Below are positions 60,703-64,000 of a stretch of 64,000 nt of DNA, in pieces. This DNA comes from a phage. Numbering within the stretch: the stretch's first letter is position 1; the number at the start of each line of letters is the position of its first letter. The stretch lies in sequence record PZ347661.1; one strand, 5' to 3'. Under the pieces are notes generated by a model. It had not been told where the DNA came from. It made no database searches and saw only the letters and a list, made by a program, of their open reading frames with translations. Made by a program: the position numbers and the translations under genes.

Positions 60703-61209
60703 TTATTCCTGTTCAAAAAGTTTACGGTCAGCCTGAATCTGTTTACCCAACTCAATTAGTTGGCTGTCACGGAGTCTAACAGTTGCCCTGAGTTCTTCAA
60801 CCAAACGTCTGCCTTCTTCAAGACTGTTGTCGAGTCTGGCTGCATGGCTTGCAAGACTTCTGCACTCAAAGGTTCCGGCTTCGGCTTTACGTTTATATAC
60901 CGATGCTCGTCTTTCAGACTGTTGCATCCGGCTGTCGTAATCACTGCTAACGCGAGCAAGCTCGCTTGCGTAATTACTCTCAGCCGTCTGCAACCGGGAA
61001 GTGAGTAACCCGACTTCATAACTATGGTTTCTTTGGAGAGCATTGTATTTGTCCTGTAATTTTTGTGTTGCCTTTTGATCTTCAATCTTTTGGTCATCCC
61101 ACTTCTTTTGAACAGTAGACTGTCCATTGGAATTACCCCAAAAGTAAATGGTGGCCCCTAGGACCACCACCAGAAGATAAGGCCAACCTTTAGAGATTAG
61201 CATCTTCAT
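60703..61209 (-). CDS. Rz: i-spanin (Rz-like, 168 aa)
   Basis: N-terminal TM helix [22 protein letters not shown] then charged coiled-coil periplasmic domain; GGAGG RBS before the ATG at 61209; directly after the endolysin gene. Confidence 0.6.
60756..61019 (-). CDS. Rz1: o-spanin (Rz1-like lipoprotein, 88 aa precursor) embedded in the +1 frame of Rz
   Basis: Embedded ORF with lipoprotein-type signal ending ...[11 protein letters not shown] and a Pro-rich mature part (VKPKPEPL); start codon choice uncertain. Confidence 0.45.
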   Translation of the reverse strand: MKSGYSLPGCRRLRVITQASLLALAVITTAGCNSLKDEHRYINVKPKPEPLSAEVLQAMQPDSTTVLKKADVWLKNSGQLLDSVTAN

Positions 61210-61825
61210 TACATGCCTCCAGTGGCACATTGCCTATTCGGTTAGCTACCCAACCATACGTAAAGTCTGGCATGTTTAATGAGGTGTAGTGGTTCAGTTG
61301 TTTGGCATCAAGTAACTTAATCATTACCTGACATGCTGCAACTTTGCCTCGTTTTTTCTGCAATGCTTTATATGCATTAACAGTACTTGTACCGACTTTA
61401 CCATCAACCTGTATTTTAGGGTAGTCTTTGCCATTGCGAGACATTTCATTAAGAGATAACTGCAACCATTTAGCAGGACGAGTTACACCAGTGTTAACAC
61501 CAGCATCTACCAGCTTGTGTGTTACAGCAGGAGATATATCAGCGAAGGCTACGAAGTTAGGCTTAAGTACGTAGTCATCAATGTATATCTCAGCAGCCAT
61601 CTCTTTAGATAAACCTTTCATAGAACCATCCCAACCATACTCAGTAGCCAGAACTTCTTTATGAGATTTAGCTACAGATTGGGTAATACCATAATTAGTT
61701 TCCCCACCTGGGTCACGAGGATTGTTTACATATCCCCCTTCCATATAGAACACTGCCCCCAGGATAGCAGCGACAACTCCTCCCACTGCACCACCTTTCG
61801 CAGCAAGTTTCTGTTTAGCTTTCAT
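61190..61825 (-). CDS. endolysin, GH108-type N-acetylmuramidase with N-terminal SAR-like hydrophobic segment (N4 gp61-like, 211 aa)
   Basis: YMEGGYVNNPRDPGGETNYGIT matches the GH108 EGGY signature; N-terminus KGGAVGGVVAAILGAVF is Gly/Ala-rich like signal-anchor-release domains. Confidence 0.7.
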   Translation of the reverse strand: MKAKQKLAAKGGAVGGVVAAILGAVFYMEGGYVNNPRDPGGETNYGITQSVAKSHKEVLATEYGWDGSMKGLSKEMAAEIYIDDYVLKPNFVAFADISPAVTHKLVDAGVNTGVTRPAKWLQLSLNEMSRNGKDYPKIQVDGKVGTSTVNAYKALQKKRGKVAACQVMIKLLDAKQLNHYTSLNMPDFTYGWVANRIGNVPLEACNEDANL

Positions 61826-62075
61826 GTGAATCTTCCTTTGGTCGGAATCGTATTAATCTGCCTACGATGTTTAAGGCAAACAGTGCAATTGCAATATTGG
61901 AACCATGGGGAATATCTTCCAGGATGTGACGAGGTAATCCTGTCAGCATTGGTTGAATGATATCTATGGCAGAAAACATAATTAACCCAAAAGTACTAAT
62001 CTGAATGGATGCCCACTTCCAGCATCTTTTCCAATTAGGTACTAACTCAATCTTTCTTCTTAACCTGCGAACCAT
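61815..62075 (-). CDS. holin candidate with two TM helices (about 86 aa)
   Basis: Internal ATG with GGGAGA RBS; two hydrophobic helices; immediately upstream of the endolysin. Confidence 0.4.
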   Translation of the reverse strand: MVRRLRRKIELVPNWKRCWKWASIQISTFGLIMFSAIDIIQPMLTGLPRHILEDIPHGSNIAIALFALNIVGRLIRFRPKEDSHES

Positions 62076-62389
62076 GCGAATATCTCCCGTCTTGCAGCAG
62101 CCAATACACCAATGATTGCACCTGCCCCAGCCCACACCCACTTACCAAAAATCCCAGCACCAACAACTTTATGTTTAATGGTAATGAACTCTTCAATAGT
62201 AGGTTCATTCTTAGCTAAACTATCCTCCACGTTTTTCAGTCTATTACCTATGTCATTGATTGAATCCCGTAGCTCCACCAGAGTTTCCTCCAGTTTCTCA
62301 CGATCCTGTCTTTCTCTTGTCTGGTTCTCAAACAGAGTCTTCAATCGTTCCTCCAGCCTGACTAGGAGTAGTTCACCCGATTCATTCAT
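62060..62389 (-). CDS. membrane protein with N-terminal coiled coil and C-terminal TM segment, holin/antiholin candidate (109 aa)
   Basis: C-terminal VVGAGIFGKWVWAGAGAIIGVLAAA hydrophobic region; first gene of the lysis cluster. Confidence 0.45.
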   Translation of the reverse strand: MNESGELLLVRLEERLKTLFENQTRERQDREKLEETLVELRDSINDIGNRLKNVEDSLAKNEPTIEEFITIKHKVVGAGIFGKWVWAGAGAIIGVLAAARREIFAWFAG

Positions 62390-62629
62390 AATATTACCGT
62401 AGTTGTGTAGTTAGAATCCCCAATAGGGTCATATCATAAGATGACTCATAGATAATACTTAGTATGATGAGGTACATCCAGACATAGTGTCTGGTATCAA
62501 CACATGGTAGATAGCGTTCAGTTGGGTATGTTTAATATCTCAAGGCAAGTAATTACCTTAACAGCAGTATCAGTTAGGGTAATGCAAACAGTGAACTCTA
62601 TATAAAAAGTATCATTAGTAGGTAAAACT

Positions 62630-62652
62630 AACCCCGCCGAAGCGGGGTTTTT
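62630..62652. terminator. GC-rich terminator hairpin between tail gene and lysis cluster
   Basis: ACCCCGC-CGAA-GCGGGGT with T tracts on both sides (stronger on the + strand). Confidence 0.5.
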
Positions 62653-62653
62653 G

Positions 62654-64000
62654 TTATGGCATTCTTATGATTCCAGTTATGTTATTAGGGGTTGCTGGCA
62701 AGGCTGTACCGCTGAATGTCAACTTCAAGAGTCCACCATTATTTGACGGTGTTATAGTTAAATTAGGTGCCGTCCCGTCTAAGTAAACAGCATCGTTATA
62801 TACGCGACCCCGCACCCGAATACCTTCAACCGTCAAGTTGATTAGAACAATCATATGCGGTCTAAAAGTAATGGCGGTATAGATAGCCCGGGTCGCAACA
62901 CCCTCATTAATCTGAGAGCAGAACGGTATAGTTGTGGAAGCATCACCTTGGTCACCACTAAACGGCAAATCTACTTTACCGCCGGTGAAGTTCTGACGTG
63001 CAATGAAATTACCAGACCCATCAAGCGCCACAGCAGGAAATACTATTTTCTCGAAACCAGAGAATGTCCACCCAGACGGAACCCCCGGCAGAGTGTTAAC
63101 CGATACCGCAGCAGGAGGAATGTTGACCGTTAAGCCATTCAGGTTTCCAGCATCAGTATTGAATTTGGTGGTGCAGTTCAGGAAGTACGTATTCTCACCG
63201 AATACACCAGAGCTTAACTGGTTGCCGTAGAAACAAGTATTTACGTTGTTAAAGAATCCACCAATTTTAACGGCTCTATGCGCTTGCGCCGCACCCATGT
63301 CAATGGCTACATCGGTGATATCTTCGTAGTAACCGTAAATTTCCAACGGCATTACTTCCCCGGTGAATACTAGCCCTTTATCACAGCTTTCAGCGTTCAC
63401 GAATTCAAGGCGCTGCCCGTTTATAGCGCCGTCAAAACGATACGCAAGTTTGCGCTGTGTAACGTTAATGTTATGGATGTTCTGCGAGTTGATATAGGTA
63501 TCAAACAAGAACGCCGGTTGTGTATGCGTTTTTGGTGCCGTCAGGTTTCGGGAAGTCATAGTATGGAACGCACCATACCAGCTTGACTTAGCAATTAGGT
63601 TTTGAGCACAATCCACGAACGTAATAGAGTGTAATTCGCTTGCCTCTGCAAAGTTCCGTACGCTAAAACCAATCCCTGCATTTCTTACGATGAAATTTCT
63701 AATCTTGGTTCCAGTTACGCGATAAGTATTATCTGCGAGGGCCACATTGCTCTCTAACACCCCTGTTGATGGGTTAAACCCACCAGTAACAAACATAGTA
63801 TTTGTACCATTTCCGACTAGTTCAGCGCCGTTCAGGTCGATGTCTACCATGGCAGGAATGATGATGGGGGAGCTGCCGATTACGTTAAATCGACCACCCC
63901 TTGATGATACTTTGCGGATGCCTTGTTTCATAGCATCAGCGTAGACATCGCCACTTATTCCATTACCAGCAGCTTTAACTGCATCAGCAATAGCTTGTGT
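62654..64000 (-). CDS. tail protein, partial (N-terminus lies beyond the window end)
   Basis: Reading frame stays open from the first Met at 63931 to the window edge; Asn/Gly/Thr-rich repetitive sequence typical of fibre or beta-helix tail proteins. Confidence 0.55.
   Translation of the reverse strand, partial: TQAIADAVKAAGNGISGDVYADAMKQGIRKVSSRGGRFNVIGSSPIIIPAMVDIDLNGAELVGNGTNTMFVTGGFNPSTGVLESNVALADNTYRVTGTKIRNFIVRNAGIGFSVRNFAEASELHSITFVDCAQNLIAKSSWYGAFHTMTSRNLTAPKTHTQPAFLFDTYINSQNIHNINVTQRKLAYRFDGAINGQRLEFVNAESCDKGLVFTGEVMPLEIYGYYEDITDVAIDMGAAQAHRAVKIGGFFNNVNTCFYGNQLSSGVFGENTYFLNCTTKFNTDAGNLNGLTVNIPPAAVSVNTLPGVPSGWTFSGFEKIVFPAVALDGSGNFIARQNFTGGKVDLPFSGDQGDASTTIPFCSQINEGVATRAIYTAITFRPHMIVLINLTVEGIRVRGRVYNDAVYLDGTAPNLTITPSNNGGLLKLTFSGTALPATPNNITGIIRMP

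Follow-up and report, generated by a model that had tools for sequence, protein, structure and literature searches.

A 64,000-nucleotide (nt) stretch of phage DNA (sequence record PZ347661.1), referred to here as the window, carries on its minus strand, at positions 60703-62389, what is very probably the late lysis cassette of a Gamaleyavirus. The cassette is gene-for-gene orthologous to gp63-gp62-gp61-gp60/gp60a of phage N4 and would follow the same pathway, in which a pinholin, a signal-arrest-release (SAR) endolysin and a two-component spanin act together. The original prediction for this DNA had placed a lysis unit of four to five genes here. All of its elements were found in place, its coordinates are the exact outer limits of the cassette, and the number of genes is settled at five. 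Gene structure, domain families, orthology and conservation could all be demonstrated for the cassette, as could a dual-coding constraint on its spanin genes. The cassette as such is already known and contains nothing new, since near-identical annotated copies exist, a 2018 catalogue already lists the spanins, and the N4 mechanism was worked out in 2025-26. Its features are the following, with lengths in amino acids (aa):

62389..62060, minus strand: gp63-like gene, 109 aa, orthologue of N4 gp63, probable pinholin
62075..61815, minus strand: gp62-like gene, 86 aa, orthologue of N4 gp62, probably an accessory lysis regulator
61825..61190, minus strand: gp61-like gene, 211 aa, orthologue of N4 gp61, a GH108 N-acetylmuramidase with a PG_binding_3 domain and a SAR-type N-terminus
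61742..61795, minus strand: SAR-type segment of the endolysin, residues 11-28, GGAVGGVVAAILGAVFYM, recognized by composition and hydropathy
61209..60703, minus strand: gp60-like gene, 168 aa, orthologue of N4 gp60, i-spanin
61043 or 61019..60756, minus strand: gp60a-like gene, 95 or 87 aa, o-spanin, in the +1 frame inside the gp60-like gene

The genes are packed without gaps, with overlaps of 16 nt between the gp63- and gp62-like genes, 11 nt between the gp62- and gp61-like genes and 20 nt between the gp61- and gp60-like genes. The portal gene (Pfam SU10_portal, E 2e-150) begins 2 nt past the gp60 stop codon. On the 5' side, the cassette is preceded by a 264-nt non-coding leader, the upstream edge of which is a hairpin (62649-62630), and still further upstream lies an open reading frame (ORF) for a 425-aa tail-fibre-like protein. 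The gene order between the tail-fibre gene and the portal gene is the same in N4, Moo19, St11Ph5 and ZQ2.

Over 2.1-2.2 kb, the cassette DNA is 95-97% identical to that of Escherichia phages PD205, ECBP1, ZQ2, St11Ph5, Bp4, pSb-1 and EC1-UPM, and a 25-kb stretch elsewhere in the window, which includes the virion RNA polymerase gene, is ~93% identical to St11Ph5, ECBP1 and EC1-UPM. These phages belong to the family Schitoviridae, subfamily Enquatrovirinae, genus Gamaleyavirus, and this near-identity makes the window part of a G7C-like, N4-related podophage. The St11Ph5 record annotates five genes at this locus: gp63, gp62 (putative holin), gp61 (N-acetylmuramidase), and gp60.2 and gp60.1 (Rz/Rz1 spanins).

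Lysis by N4 was reportedly the subject of an earlier study by Stojkovic and Rothman-Denes in 2007, as cited by Awuah et al. The N4 cassette has since been dissected by Awuah et al., in whose hands the cloned cassette lysed E. coli in ~25 min (bioRxiv 10.1101/2025.11.12.688109).

The pinholin candidate, its neighbor and the muramidase

The first gene of the cassette, rather than the second, which encodes a protein with two transmembrane domains (TMDs), is the probable source of the pinholin. The gp63-like protein is predicted to start with a cytoplasmic coiled coil of ~74 residues and to end in a single C-terminal TMD. The heptad pattern of residues 5-61 was equalled by only 5 of 5000 shuffled sequences, and a single-sequence AlphaFold2 (AF2) model places helices at residues 3-61, 65-76 and 82-108. 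The block-mean predicted local distance difference test score (pLDDT) of this model is 93-96 over residues 11-50 and falls below 50 in the TMD region, and the model is informative for the N-terminal helix alone. A hydrophobic, Gly-rich segment occupies residues 75-99, in the C-terminal part (VVGAGIFGKWVWAGAGAIIGVLAAA). The small membrane protein with a coiled coil and a C-terminal transmembrane helix that had been described at this position is thereby borne out by the heptad test, the modeled helix and the hydrophobic segment.

The gp63-like protein is 67% identical to N4 gp63. It shares with it the conserved "Receiver" segment (PTIEEFITIKHK), and residues 62-78 (PTIEEFITIKHKVVGAG), which comprise the Receiver and the start of the TMD, are identical in the two proteins, including the equivalents of T65 and T71. 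N4 gp63 is lethal and conditionally essential, complements the defect of the S21 pinholin but not that of lambda S105, and acquires rapid-lysis mutations in the Receiver segment beside the TMD (bioRxiv 10.1101/2025.11.12.688109). The only family match of the gp63-like protein was phrog_5211 (E 4.5e-50), which has no annotated function, and profile searches found no Pfam or NCBIfam family above threshold. A match to MIP-T3_C (19.4 bits against a cut-off of 25.8) was discarded as a coiled-coil artefact.

The gp62-like protein has two hydrophobic segments, which are predicted to form two TMDs with both ends of the protein in the cytoplasm. Together with the 16-nt overlap with the gp63-like gene, this agrees with the small two-TMD membrane protein overlapping its neighbor that had been noticed in the sequence. 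The protein belongs to Pfam DUF7940 (PF25612; E 1e-13, 52.1 bits against a cut-off of 27), is 58% identical to N4 gp62 over the alignment with the long form of the latter, and its gene was confirmed to lie between the gp63-type and endolysin genes. A GGGAG Shine-Dalgarno sequence is found 8 nt 5' of its ATG at 62075. In N4, gp62 is a non-essential lysis regulator with late, triggerable lethality that lets the soluble lambda endolysin out after ~2 h (bioRxiv 10.1101/2025.11.12.688109). With the function taken from N4 gp62, we infer that the gp62-like protein would be an accessory lysis regulator with a slow, holin-like activity.

The two-TMD protein could also be the true large-hole holin, leaving the gp63-like protein with some other role, as a tape measure or a mere regulator. 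This would fit its match to phrog_1356, a family labeled "holin" (E 2.3e-29), as well as the late triggerable lethality of N4 gp62 and its slow release of the lambda enzyme. It would also fit the records of ZQ2, Moo19, Bp4 and other phages, where "holin" is the label of the gp62 orthologue and "tail length tape-measure protein" that of the gp63 orthologue. However, it is N4 gp63 that can stand in for a defective pinholin and is both lethal and conditionally essential, and in phages Meara and RG-2014 a gp63-type gene lies directly beside the endolysin gene without any gp62. Moreover, a tape-measure function is impossible for a 109-aa protein with a membrane helix, and the N4-like podophages have no long tail. 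The holin reading of the gp62-like protein is consequently considered unlikely, and the gp63-like protein is kept as the probable pinholin. Of the two "holin candidates" in the original prediction, then, the one with the coiled coil and C-terminal TMD stands, as the likely pinholin, while the two-TMD protein is better described as accessory.

In Meara (1612-2537) and RG-2014 (1595-2534), the gp63-type gene abuts the SAR endolysin gene and gp62 is absent, so that the gp62 accessory is dispensable in some lineages. The label "tail length tape-measure protein" is attached to the 109-aa gp63 orthologue in ZQ2 (1961-2290), Moo19 (1359-1688), Bp4 and others, and is a propagated annotation error.

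The 22 codons 5' of the gp62 ATG (62076-62141, minus strand) are open in frame, and both in-frame starts are GTG. The long form of N4 gp62 is 109 aa and starts with ATG. St11Ph5 and ZQ2 have an ATG at -20 of gp62, Axy12 has ATGs, and Moo19 has a stop 4 codons upstream. These differences among relatives mean that a dual-start arrangement of gp62 is not conserved across the group. Likewise, the internal Met17 of N4 gp63 and the ATG of the long gp62 are not conserved in the window, where GTG is the only start codon on offer. A longer gp62 isoform starting from GTG 62141 was considered and is unlikely to be general, because the window offers no start other than GTG, the extension is stopped in Moo19, and the similarity to N4 is forced by the overlapping, conserved TMD of gp63.

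The third gene encodes the muramidase. Both domains named in the original prediction, GH108 and a PG_binding domain, were recovered above cut-off when the hidden Markov model search was run: Pfam Glyco_hydro_108 (PF05838) matched with E 4.6e-20 (72.4 bits against 21.2) and PG_binding_3 (PF09374) with E 1.6e-7 (31.8 bits against 24.6) over residues 117-196. The gp61-like protein is 69% identical to N4 gp61, falls into a PHROG endolysin family and matches the structures of the Sen1395 muramidase (PDB 6V3Z, E 1.4e-27) and TtsA (PDB 6V40, E 1.4e-20). Its E29-G-G-Y motif aligns with the catalytic Glu of these structures, and the codon for Glu29 is at 61739-61741. An assignment as equivalog of the bacterial type 10 secretion system muramidases was rejected, as the NCBIfam model "holin-associated N-acetylmuramidase" scored 57.7 against a cut-off of 240.

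The N-terminus of this protein reads MKAKQKLAAK, followed by GGAVGGVVAAILGAVFYM and then by E29GGY, and thus has four Lys ahead of the hydrophobic segment. Gly and Ala make up 11 of 20 residues (55%) over residues 8-27, and the maximum hydropathy (KD19) is 1.78, compared with 2.07 for P1 Lyz, 2.11 for R21 and 2.17 for N4 gp61. A Gly/Ala-rich hydrophobic N-terminus, as originally described, is therefore present. Residue 24 is the first one covered by the Pfam GH108 match, and the PDB alignments start at residues 19-23, so that the last part of the segment is equivalent to helix 1 of the soluble GH108 enzymes.

N4 gp61 has been purified as a muramidase, is membrane-associated, and is a SAR endolysin that cooperates with the pinholin; gp61 and gp63 can substitute for R21 and S21 (bioRxiv 10.1101/2025.11.12.688109). 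It complements both soluble-endolysin and SAR-endolysin defects. With only the spanins present it lyses slowly, and acidic substitutions that arise spontaneously in its SAR segment lead to early or rapid lysis (bioRxiv 10.1101/2025.11.12.688109). In the window, the gp63 orthologue sits two genes upstream of the gp61-like gene. N4, Moo19, Axy12, Meara and RG-2014 each combine a SAR N-terminus with a gp63-type gene, and Erwinia phage S6 has neither. By analogy with N4, the gp61-like protein is a probable SAR endolysin that would work with a pinholin, and the earlier suggestion that SAR-type export would imply control of the pinholin type agrees with the N4 experiments on gp61 and gp63.

Alternatively, the N-terminus might be a Sec signal peptide that is cleaved off, or a type II anchor that stays in the membrane, in which case control would not be of the pinholin type. 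It does show the n-region and h-region layout of a signal peptide, and the reported membrane association of N4 gp61 could be read in this way too. Against this, the segment is 55% Gly and Ala, with a hydropathy below that of proven SAR domains, and it runs directly into Glu29. Since its last 5-10 residues align with helix 1 of the soluble GH108 structures, signal cleavage after the h-region would cut into the GH108 fold. In N4, single acidic changes in the segment bring about early lysis, gp61 alone lyses slowly, and the partner pinholin cannot release a soluble endolysin. A cleaved signal or stable anchor is accordingly very improbable, and a SAR-type tether remains the preferred reading.

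Erwinia phage S6 (1468-3600) has a GH108 endolysin of the soluble type, which starts just before the EGGY motif and has no SAR segment. Its small membrane protein is different as well: it is 91 aa long and has the reverse layout to gp63, the TMD being N-proximal and the coiled coil C-terminal. An additional 176-aa acidic protein is encoded between the endolysin and spanin genes. The arrangement looks like a switch of holin/endolysin type among the N4-like phages.

The nested spanin genes

The gp60-like protein has an N-terminal TMD (residues 9-23) and a largely helical domain in the periplasm, with C116 as its single periplasmic Cys. It matches the Rz-like spanin family phrog_6197 (E 3.3e-77) and is 55% identical to N4 gp60. 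The heptad periodicity of residues 120-165 was equalled by 41 of 5000 shuffles, and the same test found no single heptad register in the N-proximal periplasmic part (residues 33-95). Hence, of an i-spanin originally described as having an N-terminal transmembrane helix and a coiled coil, the TMD is upheld and the coiled coil is supported for the C-terminal third but not for the N-proximal part. A match to DUF2514 (16.9 bits against a cut-off of 26) was discarded. The gene starts at 61209, where it is backed by a GGAGG Shine-Dalgarno sequence; the outer limit of 61230 given earlier belongs to a longer ORF and has to be abandoned. The ECBP1 entry in SpaninDB has the same GGAGG Shine-Dalgarno sequence and a near-identical i-spanin.

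The embedded ORF lies in the +1 frame, offset by 166 nt, and covers 0.33-0.90 of the i-spanin length. Its signal-like segment ends in TTAG|C, with the Cys codon at 60926-60924, and is followed by a mature part of 56 aa that has no further Cys. The Asn at +2 is compatible with outer-membrane sorting, as there is no Asp at this position. The +1 ORF with a lipoprotein-type signal ending in TAGC was thus found where it had been foreseen, at 61043/61019..60756, and fits the PROSITE-type pattern, but the description of the mature peptide as Pro-rich was overstated, with 4 Pro among 56 residues, in a KPKPEP motif. If translation starts at ATG 61043, which is preceded by AGGA 8 nt upstream, the product is 95 aa, and from ATG 61019 it is 87 aa. 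The gp60a-like protein is 60% identical to N4 gp60a, with the identities mostly in the mature 56-aa part.

When the codons of gp60 were shuffled synonymously, an alternative-frame ORF of at least 87 codons arose in 21% of the shuffles. Because such a length arises so often, the reality of the embedded gene has to be judged by its conservation rather than by its length. The i-spanin genes of N4, Moo19, Axy12 (Achromobacter), Meara (Pseudomonas), RG-2014 (Delftia) and Erwinia phage S6 all contain a +1 ORF whose product has a signal peptide, the lipobox Cys and a mature peptide that is conserved. Where gp60 residues are identical to those of N4, the codons are also identical at 40 of 44 positions over the mature o-spanin, compared with 10 of 20 upstream of the overlap. 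The corresponding values are 25/30 and 4/15 against Meara, and 22/30 and 2/9 against RG-2014. Across the mature o-spanin, synonymous change in gp60 is frozen, which means that two coding frames are under selection. Judged by this conservation, the embedded o-spanin gene is real.

That the embedded ORF is instead a chance open frame, with the outer-membrane step carried out by the gp60-like protein alone or absent, would accord with the frequency of such lengths among the shuffles, with the many GenBank records that do not annotate it and with the departure of its lipobox from the strict consensus, but can be given practically no credence, given that a lipoprotein-like signal arose in just 1.8% of the shuffles, that the ORF, its lipobox Cys and its mature peptide (NVKPx..) are kept where the i-spanins are ~20-35% identical outside the overlap, that the freeze on synonymous sites coincides exactly with the mature part, and that N4 gp60 and gp60a jointly complement lambda Rz/Rz1.

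In the N4 study, gp60/gp60a took the place of Rz/Rz1 and mature gp60a was found to have 56 residues (bioRxiv 10.1101/2025.11.12.688109). SpaninDB lists the spanins of ECBP1, EC1-UPM and G7C as embedded, in a family named "N4", with a mature o-spanin of 56 aa; it accepts the lipobox "TTAG" and counts a single periplasmic Cys for the i-spanin and zero for the o-spanin (Kongari et al. 2018, PMC6139136). With the function carried over from N4, the gp60-like and gp60a-like proteins are supported as a putative two-component spanin pair. The embedded o-spanin is unannotated in the N4 RefSeq, Moo19 and ZQ2 records.

The proposed lysis pathway and related systems

Several points weigh against an N4-type lysis cassette in the window. 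The protein functions are carried over from N4 proteins that are only 55-69% identical, and the single-sequence AF2 model of the gp61-like protein, with a mean pLDDT of 34, is unusable, so that the refolding of the end of the SAR segment as helix 1 rests on sequence alignment only. The Thr at -3 of the o-spanin lipobox is outside the strict [LVI][ASTVI][GAS]C consensus, although it fits the PROSITE-type pattern, and the o-spanin start is ambiguous among ATG 61043, ATG 61019 and a later non-ATG start that is used in one version of SpaninDB. Finally, a promoter scan found no sigma-70-like promoter on the minus strand of the 264-nt leader. The scan is uninformative, because a fit to the sigma-70 consensus is not to be expected of N4 late promoters.

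Lysis is envisaged to proceed as follows, with the functions carried over from N4 to the window phage by analogy and the refolding step deduced from the alignments. Sec would export the muramidase, and its weakly hydrophobic, Gly/Ala-rich N-terminus would tether it to the inner membrane in an inactive state; the inactivity is proposed because the segment ends one residue before the catalytic Glu29. The C-tail-anchored gp63-like protein would accumulate in the inner membrane and, at a set time, form small holes that collapse the membrane potential. The SAR segment would then exit the bilayer all over the cell, allowing the enzyme to refold and cut the glycan strands, and the end of the segment would probably become the first helix of the GH108 fold, beside Glu29. 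The i-spanin, held by the inner membrane, and the o-spanin, a lipoprotein held by the outer one, would pair via their C-terminal parts, and once the murein is gone, the spanin complex would fuse or disrupt the outer membrane. The two-helix gp62-like protein would modulate the timing, as a slow, holin-like accessory.

The closest experimentally dissected system is that of N4. The five genes, their order, their overlaps, the late strand and the position between the tail gene and the portal gene are all as in the window. N4 also shares the SAR-type N-terminus, the EGGY motif, the Receiver and Gly-rich TMD of gp63, and the 56-aa mature o-spanin. In contrast, the SAR segment of the window is 3 residues longer and less hydrophobic (KD19 1.78 vs. 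2.17), and its lipobox is TAGC where that of N4 is IVGC. The Gamaleyaviruses PD205, ECBP1, ZQ2, St11Ph5, Bp4, EC1-UPM and G7C have the identical layout, with 95-97% nucleotide identity. Within the cassette they show point differences only, but the similarity stops ~220 nt upstream, at a different tail-fibre gene.

The S21/R21 pair of phage 21 and P1 Lyz are comparable in hydropathy and composition and would share the Gly/Ala-rich tether and the logic of release by a small-hole holin. However, there is no sequence relationship between these proteins and those of the window, in which the enzyme is GH108 plus PG_binding_3 and does not have a T4-lysozyme-like fold. S21 has two TMDs, whereas the pinholin candidate of the window has a single one and is C-tail-anchored, with a cytoplasmic coiled coil of ~74 residues. 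The Salmonella enzymes TtsA and Sen1395 (PDB 6V40 and 6V3Z; PMC6996933) belong to the same two-domain fold family and share the catalytic EGGY Glu and the downstream Thr. Unlike the window protein, they have no SAR segment, and a polar helix takes the place of the end of the hydrophobic segment. The position of TtsA Asp19 is occupied by Asn in the window protein, as in Sen1395 and N4 gp61.

As in lambda Rz/Rz1, the gene for the o-spanin lipoprotein lies wholly inside the +1 frame of the i-spanin gene. The window spanins nevertheless belong to another sequence family (the "N4" family of SpaninDB). Their o-spanin has no periplasmic Cys and a short PxPxP motif instead of a penta-proline, and their i-spanin has a single periplasmic Cys.

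Lysis inhibition is seen in N4, whereas G7C, the Gamaleyavirus type phage, is reported to be without it. The pinholin regulatory segments are nearly identical on both sides, which makes the two groups a possible comparison for locating the lysis-inhibition signal. It is conceivable, though on the whole doubtful, that two further things both hold. One is that the Receiver and gp62 have been kept because of a latent or conditional lysis inhibition that was missed in G7C-like phages, or else for a basic role in pinholin gating. The other, separate from it, is that GH108 SAR endolysins are activated via a membrane-sequestered active-site helix. The latter comes to mind because Glu29 adjoins the SAR segment, the end of which lines up with helix 1 of soluble GH108 enzymes. 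The alignment suggests a form of activation for which no structural definition was found in the literature consulted.

The value of the cassette lies mainly in annotation. On the basis of the N4 experiments and of conservation, its genes can be given the labels pinholin, lysis regulator, SAR endolysin, i-spanin and o-spanin. The public records to be corrected are those that call gp63 a "tail length tape-measure protein" or gp62 a "holin", and those that omit the embedded o-spanin.

The region upstream of the cassette

The leader is bounded on its upstream side by one further feature:

62630..62649, both strands: GC-rich hairpin with T-runs, from a terminator scan, likely the terminator of the upstream tail-fibre gene

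The hairpin has a perfect 8-bp GC-rich stem, AACCCCGC-TTCG-GCGGGGTT, directly past the tail-fibre stop codon, and appears to be a bidirectional terminator-like site. A short non-coding piece that includes it (~62503-62655) is 85% identical to Escherichia phage YX22, a phage of 154.9 kb. In the same search, 107 records of Salmonella phages also came up, for which the piece matched was not identified; most matches in the search were at 95-99% identity. The piece may be shared between unrelated phage groups.

The 425-aa tail-fibre-like ORF (62654-63931, minus strand) occupies the place that the gp63.1 tail spike has in G7C. In the phage collection nothing close to it was found at the DNA level, and it matches no Pfam family. 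Its only protein matches were three remote ones, including a tail fibre of Iodobacter phage PhiPLPE (32%) and a "putative pectin lyase" of Aeromonas phage PS2 (28%), and it matches phrog_17640 (E 2e-16). Going by these comparisons, the ORF is a putative receptor-binding module not seen in any sequenced relative. Nucleotide similarity ends at ~62608 against PD205, ECBP1, ZQ2 and PE007, and at ~62501 against Bp4, PD38 and "nithesis". Since these breaks fall in the intergenic region 62390-62653, it is within the lysis cassette's leader that the host-range module has its recombination junction.

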